Made by a program: the position numbers and the translations under genes
DNA from: Lysobacterales bacterium
GTDB lineage: Bacteria > Pseudomonadota > Gammaproteobacteria > Xanthomonadales > SZUA-5
Direction: 5' to 3'
NCBI GenBank assembly: GCA_046346965.1
Contig: JAXMHB010000012.1
Span: 62,797 to 126,796 of the forward strand
Length of the DNA stretch: 64,000 nucleotides
Shown: positions 27,308-42,297 of the stretch, one piece after another
Layout: each line of letters opens with the position of its first letter
Numbering within the stretch: the first letter of the stretch is position 1
The notes under the pieces: generated by a model
What the model saw: only the letters and a program-made list of their open reading frames with translations
The model's database searches: none
What the model was told of the DNA's origin: nothing

Positions 27308-27328
27308 CGCAGATCGCGCGCCCGCGAC

Positions 27329-27973
27329 TCAGGCGCGCTGATAGATCGAGATCGCCTCGGTGTCACCGGGGCGGAAAGGCTGGCGCCGCCAGGTGCGCCA
27401 GCGCTGCAGCAGCCGCAAACTAGCCAGTTCCGTCATTTGATCCAGGCGCGCGAGCGTGAGCGGCAGATAGCGCACCCGATAGCGCAGTGCCGGTGCGAAC
27501 TGCGGCAGCGCGCAGTCGACGCTCAGCGTATCCGTGCTAGTCGCCACCAGCGTGGATTCATCGACGTAGATCCCGCCGGGGTCGAGCGCGGCAGCGATGC
27601 CGGCAAGGCAGCGCTGCTGGGCCTCGGCCGTGGTCAGCAGACTCAAGGTACTGACGAGCGAGTAGGCCAGTCCGAAGCCGCCACGGATCGGCAGCATGGC
27701 GAGGTCAGCCCGAATCAGCGGCAGGCCCGGCAGGCGTCGCCGGCAGCGCTGCAGCATCGCCGCCGAGCCATCCACCCCGCAGACCTTCACGCCGCGCGCC
27801 AGCAGGCCAGCAGCGCAGCGCCCGGTTCCGACACCCAGCGCCAGTACCGGGCGACCGGCGGCCAGCACCGTCAGGCAGTCGATCACCTGCGGATCGATGC
27901 GTGGGTAGAGCTGGTCATAAACGGCGGCGTTGCTGTCGCCGTACGCGGCCGCACCATGCAGGCGCCGCGGCAT
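27329..27973 (-). CDS. Class I SAM-dependent methyltransferase
   Basis: ATG 27973. Motif I is VLALGVGTGR and the acidic post-I is VCGVDGS. Confidence 0.7.
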   Translation of the reverse strand: MPRRLHGAAAYGDSNAAVYDQLYPRIDPQVIDCLTVLAAGRPVLALGVGTGRCAAGLLARGVKVCGVDGSAAMLQRCRRRLPGLPLIRADLAMLPIRGGFGLAYSLVSTLSLLTTAEAQQRCLAGIAAALDPGGIYVDESTLVATSTDTLSVDCALPQFAPALRYRVRYLPLTLARLDQMTELASLRLLQRWRTWRRQPFRPGDTEAISIYQRA

Positions 27974-27989
27974 GCCTTCGGCGCCCCGC

Positions 27990-28529
27990 TCAGGGTGCGA
28001 CAGGTCGGAGGCCGGGGCGCCGACCAAGGAACTGGTAGACGCCGCGATCCTCCCAATGCTCGAAACCAAGGCGCTGGTACAAGCGGTTGGCGGGGTTCTC
28101 GGCCTCCACATGCAGGGAGATCGGCACGCCCGTGTGCTCAGACTCCTCGATCAGTTCCGCGAACAGCGCGGAACCCAAGCCACGTCCGCGATAGGCCGGC
28201 ATCAGCGCAATATCCATGACGCGGATGTCGCTGGGCGATCGATGCACGTACACCCGACCGACAGCGTGGCCGTCGAACTCGATCACCAGAAAGTCGGCGC
28301 CGACGTAGTGCTTCTGGTAGTGCGCATGCTGCAGATCGAACTGATCCTGCAGGAAGGCGCGCTTGGCTTCCTCCGGCCATGGCACGGGCGCCAGTTCCTC
28401 GCGGCGCACCTCGGCATAGAGATCACTGAGGAAAGGCAGGTCAGCCGCTGTGATCGGACGCAAACTCAGCCCGACCGGACGGCGCGGGTGGGCTGAGGTC
28501 AATGCTCGCAGAGCGGTGACTGCCGCCAT
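27990..28529 (-). CDS. GNAT-family N-acetyltransferase
   Basis: Acetyl-CoA motif A (IALMPAYRGRGLGSALF) plus ANRLYQRLGF. Confidence 0.8.
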   Translation of the reverse strand: MAAVTALRALTSAHPRRPVGLSLRPITAADLPFLSDLYAEVRREELAPVPWPEEAKRAFLQDQFDLQHAHYQKHYVGADFLVIEFDGHAVGRVYVHRSPSDIRVMDIALMPAYRGRGLGSALFAELIEESEHTGVPISLHVEAENPANRLYQRLGFEHWEDRGVYQFLGRRPGLRPVAP

Positions 28530-28534
28530 GTCGC

Positions 28535-29110
28535 TCAGGCGGTTTGCAGGATCAGCGCATCGAAGTCGCGCGGACTGCCGTCTGCCAAGGTCAGCAGCGA
28601 TTTCGCGGGCTGATAGCGCAAATCGAGCAGCGCCGGCGGCGCGTTGGTGCTGCGACGGGCGGTGGTCAACACCATCAGGCTGCCGTTCGGCAGGCTGGCG
28701 TCGAAAACCCGTGTCCCCGTGGCCGTGCGCACGGTGGCGGTCAGTGCCAGCGGCGTGCCCAGCGGAAAGCGCATGCGCACCTGATTGCTGGCGCTGGGGG
28801 CGGAGCTGCCACTGCGGCGCAACTGCCAGGCGTAGATGCTGCGCGGCAGATTCGACGCATCGGCGACGGTCAAGTCGATATCCATGTGCTGAACGCCGGT
28901 GGCGACCTCGCCGGGGAGGAACTTCAGGATGCGGATCTCGCTGATCGGCGCCCCGGTGACACGCTGATTGACCTCAATCGGCAACAGCGCGCAATTGCCC
29001 GGCGTACCGCCCAGCGGCACCAGACCGCGCCCAGTGGTGATCTCGCTCCCGGCAAAGGCCGGACTACCGGCAGCCAAGCCCGCAGCGATGAGTAGCTGTC
29101 TACGCTTCAT
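28535..29110 (-). CDS. Secreted hypothetical protein with Tat-like signal
   Basis: ATG 29110. MKRRQLLIAAGLAAGSPAFA gives a twin-Arg, hydrophobic, AxA layout. It lies 5 nt upstream of the GNAT gene. Confidence 0.6.
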   Translation of the reverse strand: MKRRQLLIAAGLAAGSPAFAGSEITTGRGLVPLGGTPGNCALLPIEVNQRVTGAPISEIRILKFLPGEVATGVQHMDIDLTVADASNLPRSIYAWQLRRSGSSAPSASNQVRMRFPLGTPLALTATVRTATGTRVFDASLPNGSLMVLTTARRSTNAPPALLDLRYQPAKSLLTLADGSPRDFDALILQTA

Positions 29111-29362
29111 GATTCCCCCGTCCGCGCCGCTCGGATCGACGCTGCCGCTATTGTGAAACATCTAAGTTCCGCGACCGCGCCTTCGGTCGGCGAAATCCGC
29201 CCCTGGTACCAGGATGCGCGCGGAATCAGCTTCCGCCGCGAGATCCAGGTGCCCGCCAAAAACTGTCCCCGCGGCAGCTGCCTACGATAGCCGCTCGCAC
29301 CCGGCTTGGGTACGCGCGGCCAAGGAAGCTCTTGCCAGACATGGGTGCATGGAGCCAGGAGC

Positions 29363-29386
29363 GGGGCAGGGGTCAGGGGTCGGGGG
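29363..29386 (+). other. G-quadruplex-forming motif (G4-N2-G4-N3-G4-N2-G5)
   Basis: The sequence is GGGGcaGGGGtcaGGGGtcGGGGG. A mirror C-rich motif, CCCCCgCCCCCtgCCCCCCgCCCC, lies at 29518-29541. Confidence 0.6.
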
Positions 29387-29620
29387 ACCAACACTGCCCC
29401 CCGACCCGCTTCTGTCCCTACGCATCCATGTTTGGCAAGAGTCCCTGTCTCGCCTTCGGCGCGCTTACTCGGCTCTGCAAACTGGCGACAGTGCAATGCA
29501 GCCGCCACATGGCTGATCCCCCGCCCCCTGCCCCCCGCCCCGCTTTCGCTCCTACGCACTCATGTTTGGCAAGAGCCCGTGTCTCGCCTTCGGCGCGCTT
29601 ACTCGCTTCGCAAACTGGCG

Positions 29621-29746
29621 GTCCCGGCTCCTGGCTCTCGGGTCCCGGGTCCCGGGTCCCGGGTCCCGAGCTCCGAGTTCCGAGTTCCGAGTTCCGAGTT
29701 CCGAGTTCCGAGTCCCGCGTCCCGCGTCCCGAGTCCCGAGTCCCGA
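29621..29746. repeat. Heptanucleotide microsatellite, 18 units of G(T/C)(C/T)CCG(G/A/C)
   Basis: Read directly: gtcccgg ctcctgg ctctcgg (gtcccgg)x3 gtcccga gctccga (gttccga)x5 (gtcccgc)x2 (gtcccga)x3. Confidence 0.9.
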
Positions 29747-29772
29747 CGCATCCATGTTAGGCAAGAGCTTCC

Positions 29773-30063
29773 TCAGTTGAAGATCACCTCGAACAGCGCG
29801 CCTTGGGCGTCCGGCTGGATCGGCACCATCATGACCTCCAGCGCCCCGTGCGTGGGGTGTACCAGCGCGTACACGCCTTGCGGCAGGCGGTAGCGCTCGG
29901 GCGAGCGAAAGATCAGTCGGAAGGCCGGCGCCGGGCGCGGCGAGGGCTGATTCAACAGGGCCGCTTCGACCAGCGTCAGCGCAAACTCGGCATTGGCTGC
30001 GCGGAACTGGACGGAGGCGTTGAGCAAGGGCGTGAAGTCGGTAACGGCAAGCGTTTCCAGCAT
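29773..30063 (-). CDS. 96-aa hypothetical protein downstream of the tail-collar triplet
   Basis: Internal ATG 30063 (MLETLAVTDFTPLLNASVQFRA...GALFEVIFN). High GC3 and balanced composition. No signal peptide and a weak SD. It resembles small orphan proteins I recall next to collar triplets (possibly DUF6916), but this is unverified. Confidence 0.5.
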   Translation of the reverse strand: MLETLAVTDFTPLLNASVQFRAANAEFALTLVEAALLNQPSPRPAPAFRLIFRSPERYRLPQGVYALVHPTHGALEVMMVPIQPDAQGALFEVIFN

Positions 30064-30183
30064 GGCGGAGGGTCGGCAGAAGGGGAATCGATCGCGCCGT
30101 CGGCGCGGTGCACAGCGACCGCGCCAGACTGATCCGGTCGGGCGCGATCCATGGGGCCGGCAAAGGCACCCGTTACCTCGCAA

Positions 30184-30203
30184 CGGGCTGGAACCCCAGC
30201 CCG
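30184..30203 (-). terminator. Hairpin after third collar gene
   Basis: CGGGCTGG-aacc-CCAGCCCG: an 8-bp stem 17 nt after the stop at 30220. Only a short U-run follows. Confidence 0.3.
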
Positions 30204-30219
30204 TCGAAAGGTCGCCGGC

Positions 30220-30738
30220 TCAGGTACGCGGCGGGTAAACGCCCTGCAGGGCAATGCAGAAATACACGGTGAGGTAGGGCTGCATATTGTTGTGCGGTGC
30301 GTCGCCGCCTGCCGGCGTCAGGGCGTTGGGACTCATCGCTACCAACGATGTGGCCGCGCCGTACAACAAACCGCCGGTCGAGCGCGCCATCGCCTCGGTG
30401 TTGTTCGGGACACGGTCCTCGCCGATCTGGTTGGTGGTGTTCACCGCGTGCGAGTGCGAGGGAATCTCCGATTCCAGCAGACTCACGGTCTCGGTGCCGC
30501 CCATCTCGCCCAAGTCGTGCAAGGACAGACCCGGCCCCTGCCCGGGATGCATGGGCGCGCGTCCCTGCAAATCCGGCAGTGCGAAGTTGGACTTCCCGTT
30601 TCCGCCGTAGGTAGTCCCGAGCAGCGAGAACAGCGCCGTGTTCTGGGAGAGCGGCAGCAACTGCCCGTCACACCACGCCCAACCTCGGGGTGCGAAGTTG
30701 AACGGGAACATACGAATCTCAGCAACAAAAGGATCCAT
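30220..30738 (-). CDS. Phage tail-collar domain protein (MdpB/COG4675-like), paralog 3
   Basis: MDPFVAEIRMFPFNFAPRGWAWCDGQLLPLSQNTALFSLLGTTYGGNGKSNFALPDLQGRAP...HNNMQPYL. GAGGAG overlaps the preceding stop, with a 9-nt gap. Confidence 0.9.
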   Translation of the reverse strand: MDPFVAEIRMFPFNFAPRGWAWCDGQLLPLSQNTALFSLLGTTYGGNGKSNFALPDLQGRAPMHPGQGPGLSLHDLGEMGGTETVSLLESEIPSHSHAVNTTNQIGEDRVPNNTEAMARSTGGLLYGAATSLVAMSPNALTPAGGDAPHNNMQPYLTVYFCIALQGVYPPRT

Positions 30739-30747
30739 GATTGCTCC

Positions 30748-31251
30748 TCAGGTCTGGCTCGGGAAGATGCCGAACATCGAAATAATGAAATCCACGCACA
30801 GGTAGGGCTGCATATTGGTATGCGGCTGACTACCGCCGACCGAACCCATGGACTGCGGGCTCAGCGGTGCATTCGGCGGCTGGGCAAAAAACGGCGTTGC
30901 GGTCAGCGGCGCGCCGATCACGTTGTTCGACGGATTCAGAGTGTTGGTCTGATCGCCCGACGCCAGAAACACATGAGAGTGCGCGGGAATCTGACTCACC
31001 GTCAACGTGACTTCCTCGGCGCCGCCAGTTTCCGCCAGCGTAAATCCGTTGCCGAAATGCACAGGAAGCCGGCCGCGCAGATCGGGGAGCGCAAATGTGC
31101 TCTGACCGTCGCCACCGTAGGTGGTCCCGATCAGGTTGAACAGGGTTTCATATTCGGAAATGGGCAGCAGTTGGCCCTCGCAAAACATCCATCCGGCCGG
31201 CGCGAAATTTCCGGCAAACATGCGGATCTCACCTACGTACGGTTGTGCCAT
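30748..31251 (-). CDS. Phage tail-collar domain protein, paralog 2
   Basis: MAQPYVGEIRMFAGNFAPAGWMFCEGQLLPISEYETLFNLIGTTYGGDGQSTFALPDLRGRLP...GGSQPHTNMQPYL. The gap to the upstream gene is 10 nt. Confidence 0.9.
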   Translation of the reverse strand: MAQPYVGEIRMFAGNFAPAGWMFCEGQLLPISEYETLFNLIGTTYGGDGQSTFALPDLRGRLPVHFGNGFTLAETGGAEEVTLTVSQIPAHSHVFLASGDQTNTLNPSNNVIGAPLTATPFFAQPPNAPLSPQSMGSVGGSQPHTNMQPYLCVDFIISMFGIFPSQT

Positions 31252-31261
31252 GGCCAGGTCC

Positions 31262-31768
31262 TCAGGTCGCGCTCGGGAAGATGCCCTGCAGGGCGATGCT
31301 GAAATTGATCACCAGGAAGGGCTGCATGTTGAGGTGGGCCTGGCTGCCGCCGACATTGGAGACAGTTCCGGCCGCCAGCGCGACCAGATTGCTCGGCTGC
31401 CGATAGGCCTCATAGTTCTGCGATGACGCCAATACCGTCGTGTTGCTCGGAACGGCCGCAGTCGCGTTGGCAGACGACGCGTTCAGGACGTGCAAATGGG
31501 TAGGAATCTCGTTGATCGACAGCGTGTGGCCCTGCTCGCCACCACGCTCGCCCAGCGTATGACCGCTGCCCACGTGAATCGGTGTGCGCCCGCGGAAATC
31601 CGGCAGCCCGAAGTTGACGCGCCCATCGCCACCGAAGGTGGTGCCCAACAGTGAAAACAATGCCTGGTTCTGGTTGATCGGGAGCAACTGGCCATTACAG
31701 AGCGCCCAACCCTTGGGCGCAAAGCCAAAGCTCATCAAGCGTATCTCGCTCAAGAACGGTTCCGCCAT
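31262..31768 (-). CDS. Phage tail-collar domain protein, paralog 1
   Basis: MAEPFLSEIRLMSFGFAPKGWALCNGQLLPINQNQALFSLLGTTFGGDGRVNFGLPDFRGRTP...GGSQAHLNMQPFL. A GGGGAGA SD is present. Confidence 0.9.
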   Translation of the reverse strand: MAEPFLSEIRLMSFGFAPKGWALCNGQLLPINQNQALFSLLGTTFGGDGRVNFGLPDFRGRTPIHVGSGHTLGERGGEQGHTLSINEIPTHLHVLNASSANATAAVPSNTTVLASSQNYEAYRQPSNLVALAAGTVSNVGGSQAHLNMQPFLVINFSIALQGIFPSAT

Positions 31769-31899
31769 TTCCTGTCTCCCCTTGTCAGAGTCGCCACGGT
31801 TTGTTTGCGTAGGCCGTTTGCTGCCTCGGCAGACCCGGCTCTGGATGGTGTCGCTGCCGCTGCCCCCACCGATCGTCCATCGGCCCCCTGGGGCGGATA

Positions 31900-31925
31900 C
31901 CGCGCGGCCGCTGTGGGCCGCGCGG
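31900..31925 (-). terminator. Perfect 10-bp GC hairpin 14 nt after the giant gene (attenuator/terminator candidate)
   Basis: CCGCGCGGCC-gctgtg-GGCCGCGCGG. No U-tract follows. Confidence 0.35.
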
Positions 31926-31938
31926 TGGATGCTGCTGC

Positions 31939-34900
31939 TCAGGTCGGCGGATTCAGGCAGGTGGCGTTGCCTACCACACTGATCGTACCCAGGGCGGTGG
32001 TCAGCGTCGCCGGCGGGTGGTTGTCGTCCAGCACGGTGGCCGGTGTCGGCGAGCCCGAGATGCCCTGCTCCAACTGGACCGTGGCCGGCGCCGCCTGACG
32101 CACACGCAGACCGAAGGCCCCGTTGACCGTGTTGTTGCGGACATCAAAGCAGGCGGTGCCGCGGCGCGCGGTGACGTCGGCGGTGGCGCCAAAGGTTGGA
32201 TCCACGCCGGTGACCACGTTGTTGATCACGGTGGTGGTCCAGTCGGGCGTGGTGTTGATGTCGGGCGTATCCACCAGGAAGGGCCGGGTGGTGCCGCCGT
32301 TGGCCGGGTGATCGATCGAGTTGCCGTCGATCGAGATATTGGCGCGACTGACCTGACCGATGGTGCTGGTCAGGAAGGCAATGATCGAATGGTTGGTCGC
32401 CGTGATCGGCGAGTTGACCACGTTGTTCTGGATCAAGGCCGTCAGACCGATGGCGCCACCAGCCAGCGCGTTGGCATTGCCCGGCGTCTGGCCGACGAAG
32501 ATGCCGACGCCACCGAAGCTATTGATGCGGTTATTGGTGACGCGCGCGGTCAGACGACCATTGTTGCCGTTGGACAGCACGAAGCCTTCATTGCCCTGGG
32601 TGAGTCGGCGGGCGAAGGACTCGTCGATGGTCGCATTGATCACCGAGCTGTCATTGGCGGCAATCTGGATCGCCTGCGAGCGATTGTCGCGGAAGATGCA
32701 GCGGTCGATGACCAGCGTCGCGTTGGCAGTGCCCTGCATCTCAAACAGGATGCCGTCGGAACCGCCGGTGGTCGAGTTGGAGTCCACCGAGCAATCGGCG
32801 GTGTCGTCGCCAGCGCTGTTCGGATTGGCGCCCTCGCTGACCGGATTCACGCCCTCAATGTTCAAGGTCAGCGTGCCGGACTGGTTATAGAACTCCAGGT
32901 TGTGCTCGATGCTGCCGCTGACCTTGGTGTTGCGAATCAAGCCGGTGCCCGTGAGGCCATTGATGCCACCCGGATTGCTGACGCCGAAATTGATCGCACC
33001 CTCGGTCTGCCCGGTGTTGTTGCCGATCACACCGTTAATGACGCTGTCGGTCAACTGGAAGTTATTGACGTTGCGGCCGGTGATCGCGGAATTGTCGAAG
33101 GTATTGAGCTGCAGACGCGCCAGCGAGACATTGCTGGTGCTGTTCAGGTAGATGCCAATGCCGCTGGTGGTGGAACCGTCGGCGCCGGTCTTGCCGCTGA
33201 TGGTGCCGCCGCTGGCCGCAGCGCCGGTGCCGGTGACGGTCAATCCGCCCAGGTTGCCGGTGGTGTCGAGCGAGATACCGACATTGGCGCCAGCGCCCGA
33301 ATTGATGCGCTGGAAGGTCAGCCCGGCCGCCGCGATCGTGGTGGCGTTGACGTTGAGGCCGATGCCGCTGGTCGTGTCGATGAAGTTGCCGGTGCCGGTG
33401 ACCGAGATTCCCGTCGCGCCGCCGGTGGCATTGAAGCCAGTACCACTGGTGGTCGTGATCGCCAGACCGCCGCCCGTGAAGTTGATCGTGCTGCCGGCGT
33501 TGTTGGTCAGCGAGATGGCTGCATTCGCGCCGGTGCTCGAGAAGGTCTTCGTCGCGTTCGAGAAGTTGACCGTGCCACCCGTTCGGTTGGTGACGCGCAG
33601 GCCTTCGACACCGGCGCCGGTGCCGCAGCTGGTGAGGCAGCTCAGCGTGCCGCTGAAGTCGACGTTGCCGGTGCCACCGGAGATGTCGATCAGACGTCCG
33701 GCCGTGACCTTGGCCACCGACCCACCAAAGCTGAAGGTCCCTGCGTTGCCGCTGAGCAGGACACCCGGGAAGCCCGCGTTCGAATTGGTGATGCTGCCGC
33801 TGGCAATGGTGATGAAGCCGGTGTAGTTGGTGGCGCTGAGACCAGGACCGGCGCCGCCGGTCGAGGTCATCGTCCCCAACGTGATGGCCAGCGCCGAATT
33901 GCTGACCAGCAGCGAGTTGAACGGCGTGGTAATCGAACCACCGGTCACCGTGGTGAGGCCGGTGCTGCCCGACACGGTCATGGAGCCGGTGGTGTTCAGC
34001 AGGATGTTGCCCAGGTTCACCGGGCTGGCGTTGTTGCTCAGGCTGATCGAGCCGTTGCCCAAGGAGCTGTTCAAACCACCCGTCAAAGTCACGCCGCCGC
34101 CCGCTGGCATGTTGGCGATGGAGAAGGCGGCCGTGGTGCCGGTCAAATCGACCTGGTTGGTCACCGACCAAGTGCCACCCACCGTGTTCAGCGTCAGCGA
34201 ACCGGCGCCCGCGTTGACATTGATGTCGAGCAGGTTGCCGTTGAGCGTGCCGGTGGTGAGGTTCATCGCGGTGCCGCTGCCGGTCAACGTCAGCTCGGCC
34301 ACCGTCAGGGTGCCGAAGGCGTTGCCGAAGATGTCGTTGCCGGCCGCACCCGAATCGCCGATGGTGAAGCCGCGCAGCGTGTTGCCGGTGCCGAGCGTGA
34401 TGCAGTTGCCGGTGCAGCTGAGCGTCGGTGCCGTGCCGCCGAAGGCCGGGAAGCTGGAGCCGGTGACCGGAGCGATGCCGGTGATCGCGCCGAGCGTCGA
34501 GGAGGAACCGTCACCCACCACGCGTTCACCGTTCTCCAGCGTGTGCGTGCCGGTGTAAGCGCCCTGGATCAGGTAGATGGTGTCGTTGGTGGTATCAGCC
34601 GCCGTTACCGCCGCCAACGTGGTTGCCGGGCAAGCCTGGGTGCCGACGTTGTCGCCGGTGCAGACAGTACCCGCGGCGTTGTCGTCGACGAACCACACCA
34701 GTTCGAGCTCTGCTGCCGGGGTCGTGGCATAGGTAAAGGTGATCTGCGCGGTATCGCCGCCCGTGACTGTGTAGAAGAAGTCTGTGCTGGCGGCGGCCGG
34801 GTTGGCCGGCGGATAGAAGGTAAAGGTGCCATTGGCATTCAGGCGGAGTGTGCCATTGGTGCCGTCATCCAACAGGCTGCCTGGCGCATTGGCGTTGGCG

Positions 34901-37900
34901 TTCGCCAGCGTTTCGCCAAAGCCGGTGATCGTACCGGTGCCCAGGGAGTCGTTGGCATCCAACTCCGCCGCTACGGGGGCAGTCAGAGTCAGCTGACGCG
35001 TCACCGGATAAGTGTCGTCGACCGCTTCCGGGCGCACATCAAAGGTGTAGACCTGATTCGCCGCCAGCGCATTGGGCGGATCGATTGCATCGTTATCGGT
35101 GATGTTCGATGCGACTACGGTCAGCGTGCATTGGGTGCCGCCTGGAAGGTTGGCAGTCGGATCGATGGTCAGGCTCGTGGCGTTGGTGGCCGGGAGTCCA
35201 GCAAATGCCCGCGGGGATCCGACCGGACACTCCAGCGTGACTGCAGCCGCAGTTGCATCAATGGCCTCGGAGAAGTTGATGACGAGGTTGCTGTCGCCAT
35301 CGACCAACTGACCCACGCCGAGCGGTAGGGTCGTCGGCACATTGGCCACCTCGGCAGTTGCCGAGGTTATGGCAGGTTGGGCGTCCACCGTGAAACTGCG
35401 TACGAAGTTGGCTGCCAGATTGTTCGGCGGATCGTTGGCATCGCTGTCGCTAATCTCGGCTGCGACGCCTGTGAGCGTGCACGAACTACCTTGCGGCAGT
35501 CCGCCCGTGGGCGTCAGCGTGATGGTGTTGGTAGCCGTGGCCGGCAGCGCCGGGACGCTGGTGAAGGGCACCGCAGCACCACAATTCAGCGTGAAGGCGT
35601 TGCTGGTCAGATCGACGTTCTCGCTGAAATTGACCGTGATCGTCTGCGTCGTCGGCACCACGGCGGCGGCAGCAGGCGTAGCCGTCGTCACCGTCGGTGC
35701 GGCGTCGGTCGTGAAGCTCCAGTTGAAGTTCGCCAGCATCTGATCGGGCGGGTCGCCGGCATCGACGTCGGTCACCAGGGTGGCGACCACACTGCCGTTG
35801 CAGGTGGCGCCTTCGGGCAGCGCCGCGGTCGGCGTCAACACCAAAGAGCTCACGTTGGTGGCCGGCAAGCCGGCGCCAAAGCTCACGGCGGCACCGCAAT
35901 TCAGCGTGACGCCACCGGCAGCGACATTCACGGGCTCGGAGAAGTTCACCGTGATCGTGCTGTTATTGGCAAGGTTCGTCGCGCCGTTGCCGGGCAGCAC
36001 CGAACTGACGCTCGGCGCGGCGTCGACGTTGAAGGTCGCGACGAAGTTGGCGGTCATATTGTCGGGCGGGTCGATGGCGTCGTCGTCGACCACCTGCGCG
36101 GCAAACACCGTCAGCGTGCAGCTGTCACCCTGGGTGTAGTTGACGGACGGCGACAGCACAAACACCGGGTCGAGGACGGTCACGCCCAGCCCGGAACCCA
36201 CGGTACGGCTGCCGGAAATCGTGCACAGCACCTGCGCCCACACGCCGGTCGGATTGACCGCTTCGCTGAAGGTCAGACGGATCTGCGTGTTGGAGTTGGC
36301 CCCTACACCGCCAGCCAGCGGCAATGCCGTGAAGCTGCCGCCAACCTGTACTTCGGCCGTGGCCACCGACGGCGGATTGTCGTTCACCGAGGTGAAGCTG
36401 ATCGCGACATTCGCCGCCATGTTGTCGGGCGGATCGCCGGCGTCGGTATCGGTGATGCCGGCGGCCAGTGCGGTCACCGTGCACAGCGTGTTGATCGGCA
36501 GCAAGCCGGTCGGAGTCAGCGTCGCCGTGTTGGTACCGCTGCCGGCGACGTTGAAGGGCACGGCGGCGCCGCAGCTGTAGGTAAAGCTGGCCGCGGTGAA
36601 GTTCACGTTCTCGCTGAAGGTGTAGGTCACCACGCCGGTCAGCGGCACATTGACCGCCCCATTGGCCGGGTTGGTCGCGGTCACGCTGGGCGCGGCATCG
36701 GTGTTGAAGGTGCGCACCACGTTCGCCGCCAGATTGTTCGGCGGATCAAAGGCGTCAACGTCGGTGATCTCGGTCGCGACGGCGGTGGCGGTACACGCGG
36801 TGTTGGCCGGCAGCGCGGCGCTCGGCGTGAAGGTCAGCGTGTTCGTGCCGCTGCCGCTGACCACACCGGTGATCGAGCCGGCGCAGTTCAGCGTGATCGC
36901 GTTCGCCGTTGCATTGACCGCTTCGTCAAAGGTGTAGCTGACCGTGGTGCCGGTACCCAGGCCCGAGGCGCCGTTGGCCGGTGCTCCGCCGGTGACGCTG
37001 GGAGCGGCGTCCACGGTGAAATTGACGACGGTGTTGGCGACCGGATTCTGCGGCGGATCGGCCAGATCGCTGTCGTTGATGGCGGCGGCGAGTACCGTCA
37101 GCACGCAGGCGCCGGACGGCAGGCTGCCAGCGTAGGTCGGATTGAGCACGCTGACGGCAGTACCACTGGCGCCGCCGGTGATCAGATTCGGGCCACCGCC
37201 GCAGCTCAGCGTCACCGCATTGGTGGCGTCCACCGGCTCGCTGAAATTGATCTGCAAGGCGACGTTGTTGGCGGTCGTGCTGCCGTTGGTCGGCGTGGTA
37301 GTGGTCACGGCCGGCGCGGCATCGACGGTGAAGGTCGCGCTGTAGTTGGCTGCCGGATTGTTCGGCGGGTCGATGGTGTCGACATCGCTGACGCTGGCGG
37401 CCGGCACCGTCAGGGTGCAGCTGCCGGCGGGCAGCGGGGCGGTGTAGGTCAGATTCAAGGTGGTCACGCCGGCGCCGGTGCTGCCACCGGTGATCAGGTT
37501 GGGGCCGCCACCGCAGCTCAGCGTGGTGCCGGCGATGACGTTGACCGATTCGCTGAAGTTGACGCTGATCGCGGCGTTGTTGGCGATGGTGGCGCCATTG
37601 GCCGGCGTGCTGCTCACCACCGGCGGAGCGTCGACGTTGACGCTGATCAGGTCGGTGTCGATCTGCGCGCCGCCGCTGCCGGTGTTGCCCTGGTCATTGG
37701 TGATCACGGTGATCGTGCGCGTCGCGGTGGTGCCGGCGACCGGCGTGTAGGTCAGGCTGCCGGAGGGGCCGTTCAGCGCCGTGTTCAGCGCCGTCAGCGT
37801 ACCGGTGGCGATCACCAGCTCGGTGCCGTTGCCGGTCAGGCTGCTCAGCACGCCACCCGGATTGGCCAGCGTCAGCGTGCCATTGGCCGGCGCGCCGGTG

Positions 37901-40900
37901 CCAAAGCTCATCTGCACGATGCCGGCTGCGGCGTCGACGTCGGCCACGCTGATCGCGTTGGTGTTGGCGGTGCTGAAGACCAGCGGCACGGTGTCGCCAG
38001 TGTTCTGCGCGCCCGGCACGGTGTTCACCGGCGCGTCGTTGACGGCGTTGACGGTGATGACGAAGGTCTGCGCGGCGCTGGTGTTGACGTTCGGGGGAGT
38101 GCCCGAGCCGCTGTCGACCGCGACCAGCGTGATGGTAGCGCTGCCGCTGGTATTGGCGGCGGGCGTGTAGGTCAGCACGCCGGTCGGGCTGATCGCCGGG
38201 GCGGTGCTGAACAATCCGGCATTGGTGTTGCCGGTGACGTTGAAGCTGACCGTCTGCGCGGCCTCATCGGCCGGACCCGGGCTGATCGCAGTCGCCCACG
38301 GATTGACCGTCTGCGGACCCGCGTCTTCATTCACGCTCTGATCGGCGCCCTTGGTGAAGCTGGGCGCGTCGTTCACTGCAGTGACGGTGATCGTGAAGTT
38401 CTGCGGCGCACTGGTGTCGACGCCGCCGTTCGCGGTGCCGCCGTTGTCGCTCAGCGTCAGCGTGATCGTGGCGGTGCCGTTGGCGTTGGGCGCCGGCGTG
38501 TAGGTCAGCACACCCGTCGGGCTGATCGCTGGCGCAACGCTGAACAGGGCCGCGTTGGTGTTGTTGGTGACATTGAAGGTCAGCGTCTGCGTGACTTCCG
38601 GATCGCCATCGTTGATCGCCGTGGCCCACGGGTTGACCGTCTGCGCGCCGGCATCTTCGAGCACGGTCTGGTTCGGCCCCGCAGTGAAGCTGGGCGCGTC
38701 GTTGACGCCGGTGACGGTGACCGTGAAGGTCTGCGTGGGGCTCAAGTCGACACCGCCGTTGGCGGTACCGCCGGAATCCTGCACGCGCACCGTGAAGGTG
38801 CTGCTGCCGTTCTGGTTGGCCGCCAGCGTGTAGCTCAGCGTGCCATTGTTGGCCACCGCCGGCGCGACCGCGAACAGCGCCGGGTTGCTGACCGCGCTGA
38901 CGGTGTAGCCGAGCACGGTCTGACCGGATTCGTCGGCCGGGCCCGGATTGAACGTGGCCCAGGCCGGAATGCTGACGGCCGCCGCGTCTTCGTTCACCGT
39001 CGGCGGATTGCTGGCGGTGAAGCTCGGCGCGTCATTGACCGCAGTGACGGTGATCGTGAAGTTTTGCGGCGCGCTGGTGTCGACGCCGCCGTTCGCGGTG
39101 CCGCCGTTGTCGCTGAGCGTCAGCGTGATCGTGGCGCTGCCGTTGGCATTGGGCGCCGGCGTGTAGGTCAGCACGCCCGTCGGGCTGATCGCCGGCGCAA
39201 CGCTGAACAGGGCCGCGTTGGTGTTGTTGGTGACATTGAAGGTCAGCGTCTGCGTCACCTCCGGATCGCCATCGTCGATGCCGGTCGCCCACGGATTCAC
39301 CGTTTGCGCACCGGCGTCTTCCAGCACGGTCTGGTTCGGACCCGCGGTGAACACCGGCGCATCGTTGATGCCGGTGACCGTGATCGTGAAGGTCTGCGGT
39401 GTACTGGTGTCGATGCCGCCGTTGGCGGTGCCGCCGTTGTCGCTCAGCGTCAGCGTGATCGTGGCGCTGCCGACCGCATTCGCGGCGGGCGTGTAGGTCA
39501 GCGTGCCGGTCGGGCTGACCGCCGGCGCAGCACTGAACAGCGCCGGATTGGTATTGCCGGTGATGTTGAAGCTGAGCGTCTGACCGGACTCATCGGCCGG
39601 GCCGGCGCTGATCGCCGTCGCCCACGGCGTGACCGTCTGCGCGCCCGCGTCCTCGTTCACGGTCTGGTTGGCGCCTGCGGTGAAGCTCGGCGCGTCGTTG
39701 ACCGCGGTGACGGTGATCGTGAAGCTCTGCGGCGCACTGGTGTCGACGCCGCCGTTGGCGGTGCCGCCATCGTCGCTCAGCGTGAGCGTGATGGTCGCCG
39801 TGCCATTGGCGTTGGCCGCCGGCGTATAGGTCAGCGCGCCGGTCGGGCTGATCGCCGGGCCAGCGCTGAACAGTGCGGGATTGGTGTTGCCGGTGACATT
39901 GAAAGTCAGCGTCTGCGTGACTTCCGGATCGCCATCGCTGACGCCCGTAGCCCACGGATTCACCGTCTGCGCGCCGGCATCCTCGAGCACGGTCTGATTC
40001 GGGCCCGCGGTGAACACCGGCACATCGTTCACCGGCGTGATCGTGATGGTCACCGTGGCCGGCGTCTGGCTCGGAACCTGACCATCGAAGGCGTTGTAGG
40101 TGAAGGTGTCTGTGCCGTTGGCATTGGCATTCGGCGTGTAGGTGAAGCCGCCGTTGGCATTCAGCGTCAGCGTGCCGCGCGTCGGGCCGGTGACCAGTTG
40201 CGCCGTGATCGGATTGCCCTCGGGATCGCTGTCATTGGCGAGCACGCCCGGCGCCGGCACGGTCAGCGCCGTGTCTTCCAGCGTCGTGTAGGCGTCATTG
40301 ACGGCGACCGGCGGCCGGTTTTCCACGTCCACCACGTCCAGGCGGAAAAACAGCGTCGAGGCCTCGTCGGCACCGAAGGCAGCGACGATGTCGGTGGCTG
40401 CCAGATTGGGTACCGGATCGCCGGTGGGATCGTTTCCGATCGGCGAGCTGTTCGACCAGTCGCCCACCTGACCGTCGGCGATGAAGTTGGCCGCCCACGC
40501 CGCCAGGCCGGCGGAGAAGAAGGCGCCCAGCAGCAGCATCTGCGCCAGCGCGCGATTGCGCTTGAGCGTGCGCAGCGCCACGCCGACCAGCACCAGCGCC
40601 AGCAACAGCGCGCCAACGAAACCCAGCGTCGGGATCAGCTGCGGCGTGCCGACGGTCATCGGCGGACCGCCGACCTGACCGTTGCTGGTGTAGAGGATGT
40701 CGATCGACCCCGAGGCGCTCTCGGCGGCGAAGCCGACGCGCACTTGCGGCTGTACGCCCGGCAGCAGGCTGCGGCCCACCGCCATTTCGATCACATCAGC
40801 GAAAGCGCCGGCGCCTAGCGGCAGACCGTTGTTGAGGCCGACGGGGTAGCCCGCGCTCAGCGTGGCTGGTGCGCTGAAGCTGCCGCCAGAGCAGGCTGCC

Positions 40901-41118
40901 AGCGTCCGTGCCGACACCACCGGTGGCGTACCGGTGACGGTAACCGTGAGTCGGAAGTCCGCGCCGGCGAAGGTCTGCCCGCCTCCGCTGACGGTACAGC
41001 CCGTGGTGTCACGCAGATCGGCGTCGAGGTACACGTGGTAGGTGTACGACTGCGCCTGCGCGCCAGCGGCGAACAGGAGCAATGCCAGGACGGAAAAAGC
41101 TCGGCGGAACAGGTGCAT
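31939..41118 (-). CDS. Giant (3059-aa) secreted repeat protein: N-terminal domain + internal IPTL-type anchor, Ig/cadherin-like tandem repeats, C-terminal parallel beta-helix
   Basis: ATG 41118 gives the signal peptide MHLFRRAFSVLALLLFAAGAQA. One cadherin-like module (VAVNDAYTTLEDT...) is followed by six ~110-aa repeats (VNDAPSFTAG.NQTV.EDAGAQTV.PWAT...TANGG.DTS.PQ.FTITVT) at nt 38044-40032. Eight ~105-aa two-Cys repeats, each ending D.D..DPP.N..AN, occupy nt 35035-37629. A Gly/Thr/Asn-rich beta-helix-like region spans roughly nt 31942-34700. Confidence 0.9.
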   Translation of the reverse strand: MHLFRRAFSVLALLLFAAGAQAQSYTYHVYLDADLRDTTGCTVSGGGQTFAGADFRLTVTVTGTPPVVSARTLAACSGGSFSAPATLSAGYPVGLNNGLPLGAGAFADVIEMAVGRSLLPGVQPQVRVGFAAESASGSIDILYTSNGQVGGPPMTVGTPQLIPTLGFVGALLLALVLVGVALRTLKRNRALAQMLLLGAFFSAGLAAWAANFIADGQVGDWSNSSPIGNDPTGDPVPNLAATDIVAAFGADEASTLFFRLDVVDVENRPPVAVNDAYTTLEDTALTVPAPGVLANDSDPEGNPITAQLVTGPTRGTLTLNANGGFTYTPNANANGTDTFTYNAFDGQVPSQTPATVTITITPVNDVPVFTAGPNQTVLEDAGAQTVNPWATGVSDGDPEVTQTLTFNVTGNTNPALFSAGPAISPTGALTYTPAANANGTATITLTLSDDGGTANGGVDTSAPQSFTITVTAVNDAPSFTAGANQTVNEDAGAQTVTPWATAISAGPADESGQTLSFNITGNTNPALFSAAPAVSPTGTLTYTPAANAVGSATITLTLSDNGGTANGGIDTSTPQTFTITVTGINDAPVFTAGPNQTVLEDAGAQTVNPWATGIDDGDPEVTQTLTFNVTNNTNAALFSVAPAISPTGVLTYTPAPNANGSATITLTLSDNGGTANGGVDTSAPQNFTITVTAVNDAPSFTASNPPTVNEDAAAVSIPAWATFNPGPADESGQTVLGYTVSAVSNPALFAVAPAVANNGTLSYTLAANQNGSSTFTVRVQDSGGTANGGVDLSPTQTFTVTVTGVNDAPSFTAGPNQTVLEDAGAQTVNPWATAINDGDPEVTQTLTFNVTNNTNAALFSVAPAISPTGVLTYTPAPNANGTATITLTLSDNGGTANGGVDTSAPQNFTITVTAVNDAPSFTKGADQSVNEDAGPQTVNPWATAISPGPADEAAQTVSFNVTGNTNAGLFSTAPAISPTGVLTYTPAANTSGSATITLVAVDSGSGTPPNVNTSAAQTFVITVNAVNDAPVNTVPGAQNTGDTVPLVFSTANTNAISVADVDAAAGIVQMSFGTGAPANGTLTLANPGGVLSSLTGNGTELVIATGTLTALNTALNGPSGSLTYTPVAGTTATRTITVITNDQGNTGSGGAQIDTDLISVNVDAPPVVSSTPANGATIANNAAISVNFSESVNVIAGTTLSCGGGPNLITGGSTGAGVTTLNLTYTAPLPAGSCTLTVPAASVSDVDTIDPPNNPAANYSATFTVDAAPAVTTTTPTNGSTTANNVALQINFSEPVDATNAVTLSCGGGPNLITGGASGTAVSVLNPTYAGSLPSGACVLTVLAAAINDSDLADPPQNPVANTVVNFTVDAAPSVTGGAPANGASGLGTGTTVSYTFDEAVNATANAITLNCAGSITGVVSGSGTNTLTFTPSAALPANTACTATAVATEITDVDAFDPPNNLAANVVRTFNTDAAPSVTATNPANGAVNVPLTGVVTYTFSENVNFTAASFTYSCGAAVPFNVAGSGTNTATLTPTGLLPINTLCTVTALAAGITDTDAGDPPDNMAANVAISFTSVNDNPPSVATAEVQVGGSFTALPLAGGVGANSNTQIRLTFSEAVNPTGVWAQVLCTISGSRTVGSGLGVTVLDPVFVLSPSVNYTQGDSCTLTVFAAQVVDDDAIDPPDNMTANFVATFNVDAAPSVSSVLPGNGATNLANNSTITVNFSEPVNVAAGGVTLNCGAAVSFGAGLPATNVSSLVLTPTAALPEGATCNGSVVATLVTDVDAGDPPDQMLANFNWSFTTDAAPTVTTATPAAAAVVPTTQTITVNFSENVDLTSNAFTLNCGAAVPFTSVPALPATATNTITLTPTGGLPQGSSCTLTGVAAEISDSDANDPPNNLAANFVRSFTVDAQPAITSATAEVANVPTTLPLGVGQLVDGDSNLVINFSEAIDATAAAVTLECPVGSPRAFAGLPATNATSLTIDPTANLPGGTQCTLTVVASNITDNDAIDPPNALAANQVYTFDVRPEAVDDTYPVTRQLTLTAPVAAELDANDSLGTGTITGFGETLANANANAPGSLLDDGTNGTLRLNANGTFTFYPPANPAAASTDFFYTVTGGDTAQITFTYATTPAAELELVWFVDDNAAGTVCTGDNVGTQACPATTLAAVTAADTTNDTIYLIQGAYTGTHTLENGERVVGDGSSSTLGAITGIAPVTGSSFPAFGGTAPTLSCTGNCITLGTGNTLRGFTIGDSGAAGNDIFGNAFGTLTVAELTLTGSGTAMNLTTGTLNGNLLDINVNAGAGSLTLNTVGGTWSVTNQVDLTGTTAAFSIANMPAGGGVTLTGGLNSSLGNGSISLSNNASPVNLGNILLNTTGSMTVSGSTGLTTVTGGSITTPFNSLLVSNSALAITLGTMTSTGGAGPGLSATNYTGFITIASGSITNSNAGFPGVLLSGNAGTFSFGGSVAKVTAGRLIDISGGTGNVDFSGTLSCLTSCGTGAGVEGLRVTNRTGGTVNFSNATKTFSSTGANAAISLTNNAGSTINFTGGGLAITTTSGTGFNATGGATGISVTGTGNFIDTTSGIGLNVNATTIAAAGLTFQRINSGAGANVGISLDTTGNLGGLTVTGTGAAASGGTISGKTGADGSTTSGIGIYLNSTSNVSLARLQLNTFDNSAITGRNVNNFQLTDSVINGVIGNNTGQTEGAINFGVSNPGGINGLTGTGLIRNTKVSGSIEHNLEFYNQSGTLTLNIEGVNPVSEGANPNSAGDDTADCSVDSNSTTGGSDGILFEMQGTANATLVIDRCIFRDNRSQAIQIAANDSSVINATIDESFARRLTQGNEGFVLSNGNNGRLTARVTNNRINSFGGVGIFVGQTPGNANALAGGAIGLTALIQNNVVNSPITATNHSIIAFLTSTIGQVSRANISIDGNSIDHPANGGTTRPFLVDTPDINTTPDWTTTVINNVVTGVDPTFGATADVTARRGTACFDVRNNTVNGAFGLRVRQAAPATVQLEQGISGSPTPATVLDDNHPPATLTTALGTISVVGNATCLNPPT

Positions 41119-41376
41119 GGACGACCCCGAAACAAAAAAGCGCACTTGGCCGCGGAGAATGCGCTGCAATTGGTGTCAATTCAACGAAAAGTCGGCAACC
41201 ATCGCGTCAGGGCGCGATCGGCGCGGCTCCTCTGTACGCAGAGTGCCAAATGTCTCAGCCGCTGGTCGGAAAGTTTGCGCGACGGCACGCACGCCGCGGC
41301 TTACACCGATGGTCGAGACCGGCATCGGGAGCCGGCGCGTTATAGTCGGCGTTTTCCCCGCTGCTGAGGCTGTGCC

Positions 41377-42297
41377 ATGAGTCAATCCCTGCCCGACTAC
41401 ATCTGGTTCAACGGCAAACTGGTGCCCTGGGCCGAGGCCACTGTGCACGTGATGTCGCACGCCCTGCACTATGGCTCGTCGGTATTCGAGGGCATCCGCA
41501 GCTATCAGACGCCCAAGGGTCCGGCGATCTTCCGTTACACCGATCACATGAAGCGGCTGTACGCCTCGGCCAGCATCTACGATCTGGAGATCCAGCACGA
41601 CATCGCCAGCCTGATGGAAGCGGGCCGCGAGGTGTTGCGCGCCAATCAGCTCACCAATGCGTATCTGCGCCCGCTGGCCTGGCGCGGCGCCGGCGGTTTT
41701 GGCCTGGGCGCCGACAACCCCACCGGCACCATGATTGCGGCCTGGGTGTGGGGCCCATACCTCGGTGCGCAGGCAATTCATGACGGCATCGACGCCTGCA
41801 TCTCCAGCTGGCGCCGGGTCGCGCCGGCGACGCTGCCGGCGACCGCCAAGGCCGGCGGCAATTATCTGTCCAGCATTCTGGTGTCGCGCGAGGCCAAGCG
41901 CCTCGGCTTCCACGAAGGCATCGCGCTGACCGTCGACGGCTATCTGGCCGAAGGCGCCGGCGAGAATCTGTTCCTGGTGTTCGGCAAAACCATCTACACG
42001 CCGCCGATCGCCGCCTCGATCCTGCACGGCATCACCCGCGATACCGCGATCACGCTGGCGCAGGAACTGGGCTACGAGATCAAGGAACAGAATCTGCCGC
42101 GCGAGATGATCTATCTGGCGGACGAGGTGTTCATGACCGGCACCGCAGCGGAGATCACGCCGATCCGCAGCGTAGACGGCAAGAAGATCGGCGCCGGCCA
42201 GCCGGGTCCCACCACCCGTGCCATCCAGCAGCGCTTCTTCGGTCTGTTCGACGGCAGCGTCGAGGATCAGCACGGCTGGCTGGAATACGTGGGCTAA
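41377..42297 (+). CDS. ilvE: Branched-chain-amino-acid aminotransferase
   Basis: IWFNGKLVPWAEATVHVMSHALHYGSSVFEGIRSY...; the GGNYL and TGTAAEITPI motifs. Confidence 0.95.
   Translation: MSQSLPDYIWFNGKLVPWAEATVHVMSHALHYGSSVFEGIRSYQTPKGPAIFRYTDHMKRLYASASIYDLEIQHDIASLMEAGREVLRANQLTNAYLRPLAWRGAGGFGLGADNPTGTMIAAWVWGPYLGAQAIHDGIDACISSWRRVAPATLPATAKAGGNYLSSILVSREAKRLGFHEGIALTVDGYLAEGAGENLFLVFGKTIYTPPIAASILHGITRDTAITLAQELGYEIKEQNLPREMIYLADEVFMTGTAAEITPIRSVDGKKIGAGQPGPTTRAIQQRFFGLFDGSVEDQHGWLEYVG

Follow-up and report, generated by a model that had tools for sequence, protein, structure and literature searches.

In a 64,000-nucleotide stretch of the genome of a Lysobacterales bacterium (contig JAXMHB010000012.1 of assembly GCA_046346965.1, positions 62,797 to 126,796; hereafter the window), a group of minus-strand genes between positions 27990 and 41118 encodes a large exported protein, three consecutive proteins (A, B and C) that consist of the Collar domain of phage tail fibres, a small protein of the DUF6916 family and an acetyltransferase of the GNAT superfamily. 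This region is one copy of a widespread and conserved multi-gene unit of cellular genomes, which we call the cassette. Its three collar genes are ancient positional orthogroups with the fixed order A-B-C.

The cassette was followed through other genomes by a collar-anchored scan, using one genome per species and taking the best 80 of at least 586 confirmed matches, and linkage was counted with our own profiles in the 43 genome loci whose flanks measure 5 kb or more on either side. Of these loci, 42 contain GNAT and 39 contain DUF6916, and all three partners of the collars are found in 39. A large beta-helix protein is encoded next to the collars in 42 of the loci, in 41 of them on the same strand. 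A preliminary description of this DNA had proposed, as a check, that collar triplets in other genomes should be linked to the giant protein and to the small one, and this is indeed what we observe (42/43 and 39/43 loci, respectively). For DUF6916 as an anchor, a single-sequence search gave 6 matches and a pattern scan 2 loci, and profile and collar anchors were used instead; all five DUF6916-anchored loci carry three collars, the giant, GNAT and a second, longer DUF6916 protein.

The collar-anchored loci come from Acidobacteriota, Chloroflexota, Verrucomicrobiota, Alpha-, Beta- and Gammaproteobacteria, Bacteroidota, Gemmatimonadota and Actinomycetota, and the DUF6916-anchored scan adds Myxococcota; by our count the cassette is present in at least ten phyla. 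The contexts in which it lies are unrelated (beside recA/lexA, beside purEK, or on an Aminobacter plasmid, in Pfam-labelled neighbourhoods). Two gene orders recur. In one, the large gene is followed by A-B-C, an optional slot, GNAT and a convergent DUF6916 gene; in the other, the collars are preceded by DUF6916 and GNAT, and the large gene comes after C. The window follows the first order in modified form: its DUF6916 gene is co-directional and stands directly after collar C. An adjacent aminotransferase, 85% and 82% identical to two metagenome-assembled genomes, assigns the window to an uncultured member of the Lysobacterales. In related genomes, 80 syntenic loci all lack cassette genes beside that aminotransferase gene, and the cassette is therefore an accessory island in this lineage. 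Two or three complete triplets stand in tandem at three genome loci (L020, L044 and L085 in our numbering) and on two viral contigs (L175 and L176), with nine collar genes each in L044 and L176. Several viral contigs have triplets of longer collar proteins, and one locus filed as viral, L180, has bacterial-type collars together with GNAT and DUF6916 and may be a misclassified cellular fragment.

Against the Pfam Collar family (PF07484; COG4675) the three window collars score 94.7, 103.7 and 96.9 bits, the cutoff being 24, and they are 48-50% identical to one another. Collar B has more than 8000 homologues, with at least 78% identity among the top 120. That the three are divergent paralogs in a fixed order, as had been suggested from the window sequence, is borne out by the 77 loci with exactly three collars: for 229 of the 231 collars, the nearest relative outside the collar's own locus stands at the same gene position, the sole exception being locus L089, in which A and B are swapped. 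Over these 77 loci, collars at the same position share 70-72% identity on average, and those at different positions 47-51%. The median spacers between collar genes are 11-12 nt across loci.

Conservation is distributed in the same way along each collar. The consensus frequency is 0.8-0.99 over residues 1-93, drops to 0.35-0.55 over residues ~95-140 and returns to 0.84-0.96 in the last 30 residues; a histidine pair, HxH, is invariant in all three paralogues of the 77 loci, and the hypervariable stretch of about 40 residues directly follows it. The G+C content at third codon positions (GC3) of collar B tracks the host genome, from 0.20 in Flavobacterium to 0.93 in Intrasporangium, and third-codon-position identity to window collar B is 34-51%, as against an amino-acid identity of 60-85%. 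Because synonymous sites are saturated, the conservation of the collars reflects strong purifying selection; and because GC3 follows the host and third-position identity is only 34-51%, it does not stem from recent transfer. Sequence matches of the collars in the PDB are trimeric fibre tips, namely those of T4 gp12 (1ocy, 1pdi, 5iv5) and entries 8kec, 9nxk and 9qgo. A monomer model of collar B reached a predicted local distance difference test score (pLDDT) of 41.7 and was not used for fold search.

The cassette genes and associated features of the window are as follows.

31939-41118, minus strand: gene of the large exported protein, 3059 amino acids (open reading frame with ATG at 41118; translation; Pfam/NCBIfam matches)
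31900-31926, minus strand: GC-rich hairpin with an 11-bp stem, starting 13 nt past the large-gene stop (free energy, dG, -28.1; z-score -2.5)
31262-31768, minus strand: collar A, 168 amino acids; HxH at residues 91/93; hypervariable insert at residues ~95-140 (31349-31486); Pfam Collar, E = 3e-27
30748-31251, minus strand: collar B, 167 amino acids; HxH at residues 91/93; hypervariable insert at residues ~95-139 (30835-30969); Pfam Collar, E = 5e-30
30220-30738, minus strand: collar C, 172 amino acids; HxH at residues 95/97; hypervariable insert at residues ~99-146 (30301-30444); Pfam Collar, E = 7e-28
30181-30206, minus strand: hairpin past collar C, with an extended stem at 30170-30218 (dG -32.7; z-score -5.1)
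29773-30063, minus strand: DUF6916 protein, 96 amino acids (PF21880, E = 5e-23)
28535-29161, minus strand: protein with a twin-arginine translocation (Tat) signal, 208 amino acids, start likely at 29110 (MKRRQLLIAAG...); identified by translation, a frequent but non-universal accessory
27990-28529, minus strand: GNAT acetyltransferase, 179 amino acids, part of the cassette core (own GNAT profile, E = 6e-64; Acetyltransf_1, E = 2e-15)

The first five genes of this set, from the large gene to DUF6916, had been recognised in the preliminary description, and all five minus-strand reading frames are present at the positions given there, the collars with their motifs. As a statement of the extent of the module, that account stands for these genes and is incomplete beyond them, having missed the Tat-signal gene (28535-29161) and GNAT (27990-28529). 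Its reading of tight collar spacing with Shine-Dalgarno sequences overlapping stop codons also agrees with ours: A and B are separated by 10 nt and B and C by 9 nt, and GAGGA and GAGGAG lie over the TGA stops. Both hairpins that it reported are real and form stable folds; having no U-tract, neither is a canonical intrinsic terminator. A consensus scan of positions 27000-41600 found no sigma-70 promoter and no canonical terminator, so we read the operon structure from gene spacing alone. The DUF6916 gene begins 156 nt past collar C, with the strong hairpin in between and no clear Shine-Dalgarno sequence, and for these reasons it is not translationally coupled, unlike A-B-C.

A number of further observations concern this locus. 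The spacer between the DUF6916 and Tat-signal genes (29162-29772; 660 nt) is crowded with repeats: the heptamer GGGACTC occurs 15 times (29642-29746), there is a G-rich CCCCCGC run (29518-29541), and two direct repeats of ~75 nt are accompanied by partial and inverted copies of 'ggaagctcttgcc.acatg'. The spacer looks like an insertion of the repetitive extragenic palindrome (REP) or miniature inverted-repeat transposable element (MITE) type, which may account for the unusual gene order at the window. GC3 is 0.71 in collar B and below 0.78 (the filter) in both A and B, compared with 0.80-0.89 in typical window genes and 0.86 in the giant gene; the lower values of A and B could reflect a different codon usage or a later arrival. 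After GNAT, on the same strand, lies an S-adenosylmethionine-dependent methyltransferase reading frame (27329-28111) that overlaps GNAT by ~120 nt as called, and its true start is therefore probably further downstream; no methyltransferase was seen beside the cassette in the other loci. Inside the giant gene, the plus strand has antisense reading frames of 1103 and 1813 amino acids (32017-40818), which are shadow reading frames typical of high-GC repeat genes rather than genes.

In the window the large protein carries eight Big_5, six Big_9 and Cadherin_5/4 matches (Pfam) and a tandem-95 repeat (NCBIfam), and its layout runs from a signal peptide through an N-terminal domain, a membrane hairpin and an immunoglobulin (Ig)/cadherin-like stalk to a beta-helix head and a C-terminal tail.

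41050-41118, minus strand: Sec-type signal peptide MHLFRRAFSVLALLLFAAGAQAQ, read from the translation; N-terminal signal peptides are also present in homologous giants
40492-40635, minus strand: internal IPTL-CTERM-like segment IPTLGFVGALLLALVLVGVALRTLKRNR followed by a second hydrophobic helix (residues ~162-209), a putative membrane hairpin anchor
35119-40332, minus strand: variable Ig/cadherin-like repeat stalk (Pfam domain positions)
38029-40014, minus strand: tandem repeat of 333 nt x 6 within the stalk (TRF)
32419-35118, minus strand: conserved domain, probably a right-handed beta-helix, residues ~2001-2900 (BLAST coverage map and domain matches)

The preliminary description had linked the collars to a giant Ig-repeat/beta-helix protein. 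The conserved feature is not the Ig-repeat giant as such: the stalk varies between loci, and the part that is shared is the probable beta-helix domain of ~900 residues, which is common to the partners in all phyla, is present also in partners of just 930-1250 amino acids and is 30-50% identical between loci. The domain has no Pfam match in the window protein; two of 16 homologous beta-helix segments matched Beta_helix (PF13229) at 6e-6, and the domain profile had a weak match (E = 0.0065) to the beta-helix of a GH110 glycosidase (7jw4). When the large gene is upstream of the collars the domain is C-terminal, and when the gene is downstream the domain lies near the N-terminus (residues ~100-800); because its position within the protein flips with the gene arrangement in this way, the beta-helix domain is always encoded on the collar-proximal side.

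The partner's mode of export changes with lineage. At the window and many other loci it has a Sec signal peptide and an internal IPTL-CTERM-like transmembrane segment followed by a second helix; in Aminobacter it has an inverse-autotransporter barrel (IAT_beta); and in Flavobacterium (L039) a 1738-residue beta-helix protein ends in a C-terminal sorting domain (CTD) of the type IX secretion system (T9SS). The internal IPTL and second-helix layout recurs in L007, L009, L012, L019, L026, L060, L064, L067 and L071. IPTL-CTERM is normally a C-terminal signal, and here the complete arrangement (IPTL, hydrophobic helix, basic cluster) sits ~160 residues from the N-terminus. Giants of this kind occur in Gammaproteobacteria, Betaproteobacteria and Acidobacteriota, and those of L009 and L064 have a textbook IPTLSEWGLLGLILLLLVAVIRQRSR; the segment could anchor the protein in the membrane as a hairpin or mark a site of processing. 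Partners encoded upstream of the collars end in a Cys-x(1-3)-Pro motif (CLNPPT, CLDPPP, CSLP, CMLP, CVLPF, CPIP and others; region 31942-32100 in the window), which spans Proteobacteria, Acidobacteriota and Actinomycetota.

The 96-residue protein had been regarded as an orphan, a view that has to be given up: it is a full-length DUF6916 (PF21880), scoring 81.4 bits against a cutoff of 27 over residues 6-95 of 96. A profile search gave more than 2115 homologues, which are single-domain proteins of ~100 amino acids and all unnamed. Its AlphaFold 2 model is a six-stranded beta domain (pLDDT 92.4), for which a Foldseek search of the PDB and BFVD returned nothing significant, the best matches (E values 0.06 and 0.014) being to phage tail/hub-like and PilZ-like small barrels. 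Within the same loci DUF6916 is 25-35% identical, and the core of the cassette comprises one or two such proteins. The acetyltransferase matches the RimI model TIGR01575 at E = 3e-13, but with 50.1 bits it falls under the cutoff of 86.4; it is therefore a member of the GNAT superfamily and not a RimI equivalog. A divergent DUF6916 as the identity of the 208-residue Tat-signal protein was likewise rejected (hhalign probability 0.4%).

In the common arrangement GNAT and the short DUF6916 gene converge, and in many unrelated loci (L001, L009, L019, L021, L022, L027, L038 and others) exactly 8 nt are shared by their 3' ends; the constancy of this overlap suggests a constrained junction. In rhizobial loci (L005/L006, L034 and L066; Aminobacter, Mesorhizobium) the slot after collar C is filled by a protein of 430-480 amino acids whose disordered N-terminus is rich in Lys and Ala and which has a PLL-type beta-propeller lectin domain. 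Loci of the Competibacteraceae type (L009, L041 and L064) have a 180-residue protein and a GT4 glycosyltransferase instead. The lectin-domain and GT4 genes in this slot hint at an involvement of glycans.

How might these proteins act together? Our preferred model, to which as a whole we assign a probability of about 0.4, centres on a heterotrimeric knob. A, B and C would be made in equal amounts through translational coupling and would assemble 1:1:1 into a knob of pseudo-threefold symmetry, corresponding to the tip with which a phage tail fibre binds its receptor. The preliminary description had also proposed a 1:1:1 heterotrimer, an idea that the experiments on a virophage support as a precedent. 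The near-invariant halves of the collars would make up the trimer core, together with six HxH histidines contributed by the three paralogues and holding a metal, and the three different hypervariable inserts would present a composite ligand-binding face. For this part of the model, a single ABC knob with metal at HxH and the inserts as its binding face, we have moderate confidence because of the positional orthogroups, the translational coupling, the extreme conservation of the scaffold and the precedent of the virophage discussed below. With lower confidence, we suggest that GNAT and DUF6916 act in the maturation of the knob and that the beta-helix head of the partner acts jointly with it. 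GNAT and DUF6916, which would be cytoplasmic, may mature or assemble the knob, possibly through N-terminal acetylation of the collars' Met-Ala/Ser/Thr N-termini, and the knob and the beta-helix head of the surface protein would then form a binding module in adhesion or in cell-cell or cell-substrate recognition. Going further, and tentatively, one may picture a surface apparatus shared by bacteria of at least ten phyla and built on the principle of phage receptor-binding proteins, in which a domesticated, obligate ABC knob, matured by GNAT and DUF6916, is delivered independently of any signal to the beta-helix head of a lineage-adapted fibre, with the inserts setting specificity, and from which, or in common ancestry with which, the triplets of virophages and some phages arose, rather than the reverse.

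Several observations weigh against this model. No signal peptide, lipobox, Tat motif or T9SS CTD was found on the collars in any lineage, and the model leaves unexplained the route by which a knob lacking signals would reach the surface; signal-less collars fit a cytoplasmic location at least as well as one at the surface. Both collar termini are near-invariant while the export signals of the partner change with lineage. Because the collars have no export signal and the partner is exported, a physical capping or tip role on the giant, as the preliminary description had it, can only be inferred. All solved collar-domain structures that we retrieved are homotrimers. The collars, at ~70% identity, are conserved well beyond DUF6916 (25-35%) and the beta-helix domain (30-50%), which constraint imposed purely by the partners does not explain. 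GNAT is of a generic kind, and since the DUF6916 fold has no significant match, an assembly-factor role for that protein is a guess. Finally, the Tat-signal protein, which could carry a complex in its folded state, occupies its slot in at least 14 loci, the window included, and is absent from most; Tat 'hitchhiking' as a universal export route of the collars is rejected for that reason.

The conflict between the topology of the collars, GNAT and DUF6916 and that of the exported partner is also why two rival readings keep substantial weight. One of them, which we consider somewhat unlikely, is that the collars, GNAT and DUF6916 act inside the cell on the giant before its export, in chaperoning, targeting or modification, or that they have a separate, co-regulated role. 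GNAT and DUF6916, like the collars, are without export signals in every lineage, and they stay so while the partner switches between Sec signal with hairpin, T9SS CTD and inverse-autotransporter barrel. GNAT enzymes require acetyl-CoA, a cytoplasmic cofactor; the beta-helix domain is always encoded beside the collar genes; and the near-invariant collar surfaces suggest an invariant and possibly intracellular ligand. Yet extracellular receptor-binding tips are what this fold belongs to, the hypervariable insert has the look of a binding face that diversifies, and we know of no precedent for a tail-fibre-tip fold serving as a secretion chaperone. Moreover, a collar-domain protein of Ruegeria has been detected extracellularly, in the exoproteome (PMC4949626). 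The other reading, in our estimation unlikely, has the collars forming three homotrimers, A3, B3 and C3, that act in series or in one complex in the manner of the structurally related T4 baseplate proteins gp10, gp11 and gp12; fixed order and translational coupling would then serve to supply equal amounts. The T4 genes 10, 11 and 12 are consecutive and encode related C-terminal domains, and collars A and C have weak Gp10_C matches in Pfam. That every retrieved collar structure is homotrimeric favours this reading as well, and the positional orthogroups would fit three specialised homotrimers equally well. Against it, the extreme conservation of the scaffold is easier to explain if each collar has to fit two different neighbours, and the virophage DSLV2, the only experimentally studied system with the same layout and protein size, yielded a single complex of ~55 kDa for which AlphaFold 3 (AF3) favoured a heterotrimer (PMC12724248).

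By comparison, a decaying prophage or tailocin remnant that came to lie beside an adhesin gene by chance is very improbable. The Collar domain is typical of phage tail fibres, and in an earlier listing a collar triplet of Caulobacter K31 appears as a 'phage region' (PMC4221894). However, no phage structural, lysis or integration genes are found in the window flanks or in the Pfam-annotated related loci, and the neighbours in the window are aminotransferases, a methyltransferase, a hybrid histidine kinase, a LuxR-type response regulator and a TonB-dependent receptor, in accord with the lack of phage context noted before. The same six-gene set recurs in at least ten phyla, its collar genes are under strong purifying selection and are ameliorated to host GC, and the best identity of the collars is ~40% to deposited phages and at most 51% to viral contigs, compared with 60-85% between bacterial phyla. 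Furthermore, the collars are head-only proteins: the Collar domain starts at residue 7-8, there is no N-terminal shaft of the phage-fibre kind, and PHROG tail-fibre profiles (300-1000 residues) align to them through internal regions. Context, spread, selection and the head-only architecture effectively refute a phage remnant.

The cellular cassette is undescribed in the literature that we searched, in which no paper mentions DUF6916. Parts of it have nevertheless surfaced. In Acaryochloris, AM1_3684 and AM1_3686-3690, which comprise three collars, an acetyltransferase and hypothetical proteins, are co-repressed 8-16-fold (PMC11633204), and COG4675 proteins occur in soil metaproteomes (PMC5579227). 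COG4675 members are annotated as 'microcystin-dependent' or 'phage tail' proteins in thousands of genomes, and it is routine to discount them as debris of phages. Of these proteins, a large share are members of a single fixed cassette with defined partners and ~70% identity across phyla. Carriers include tractable hosts, among them Mesorhizobium, Bradyrhizobium, Flavobacterium, Spirosoma, Chiayiivirga, Intrasporangium, Caulobacter K31 and Acaryochloris. If the knob model is true, the cassette would encode a cellular counterpart of phage receptor-binding tips, with a bearing on adhesion, aggregation, symbiosis and possibly phage-host mimicry, and could be used as a natural scaffold whose three binding loops vary independently. 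Should the collars be cytoplasmic, a new role for the collar fold would follow.

We compared the cassette with known systems. The six small cassette proteins have no match in PADLOC-DB 2.0 at E <= 0.01, and a known anti-phage defence system was rejected on this ground. The large partner resembles the giant adhesins LapA and SiiE and the inverse autotransporters in that the window protein exceeds 3000 amino acids and has a tandem Ig/cadherin-like stalk with a distinct terminal domain, and the Aminobacter partner shares the barrel of the inverse autotransporters. It is nonetheless not a type I secretion system (T1SS) RTX adhesin of the LapA/SiiE type, as it has an N-terminal Sec signal and an IPTL-like hairpin, no RTX or T1SS signal, and no ABC, membrane fusion protein (MFP) or TolC genes nearby. 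What sets the window giant apart from such adhesins is its unnamed domain, probably a right-handed beta-helix, and the constant company of collars, GNAT and DUF6916.

Closer to the collars themselves are RhiB of the Rhizobium rhiABC(D) operon and MrpB of Microcystis, which are likewise cellular, non-phage COG4675 proteins of similar size and are expressed in rhizosphere, quorum-sensing and colony-formation contexts (PMC13133039, PMC3328848, PMC6969944). In rhiABC(D), however, the collar domain is found in RhiB alone, RhiA and RhiC have no Pfam domain, and rhiI and rhiR flank the operon; for both rhiABC(D) and mrp operons a single collar gene is reported, with no triplet, GNAT, DUF6916 or beta-helix giant. 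The cassette has three collar genes with no genes interposed and no LuxI-type gene in the scanned flanks, and we therefore do not count it as a member of the rhiABC(D)/mrpAB group (PMC13133039).

T4 gp12 and gp37 and other tail fibres share with the cellular collars the Collar domain, HxH and a C-terminal H-x-N-x-Q-P-Y/F motif. In T4 gp12 and gp37, six histidines form the metal sites. Phage fibres differ in being homotrimers with long N-terminal shafts, in which the collar is embedded in proteins of 300-1000 amino acids, whereas the cellular collars are head-only, the domain being preceded by 6-7 residues, and occur as a set of three paralogues outside any phage context.

The nearest parallel is provided by the virophage DSLV2 (QIG59353-59355; PMC12724248), which has three consecutive, co-oriented PF07484 genes for proteins of ~175 amino acids, compared with 168, 167 and 172 here. 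The three DSLV2 proteins, totalling 58.3 kDa, co-purify 1:1:1; they form 16-nm fibres and attach to Synechococcus cells, a patch of the head at residues 120-145 is flexible, and across 45 virophages the collars cluster by gene position (PMC12724248). Taken from the description in that paper rather than from the DSLV2 sequences, the likeness to the cellular triplet extends to this clustering by gene position and to the combination of a conserved collar part with a variable or flexible head patch; cellular homologues are not discussed in the DSLV2 study. The two also differ. In the 45 virophages the genes adjoin capsid genes and serve virion attachment, while at the window no minor capsid protein gene is adjacent and the context is cellular. 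The window triplet belongs to a cellular genome, is linked to GNAT, DUF6916 and a beta-helix giant, and is far more conserved than its virophage counterpart.

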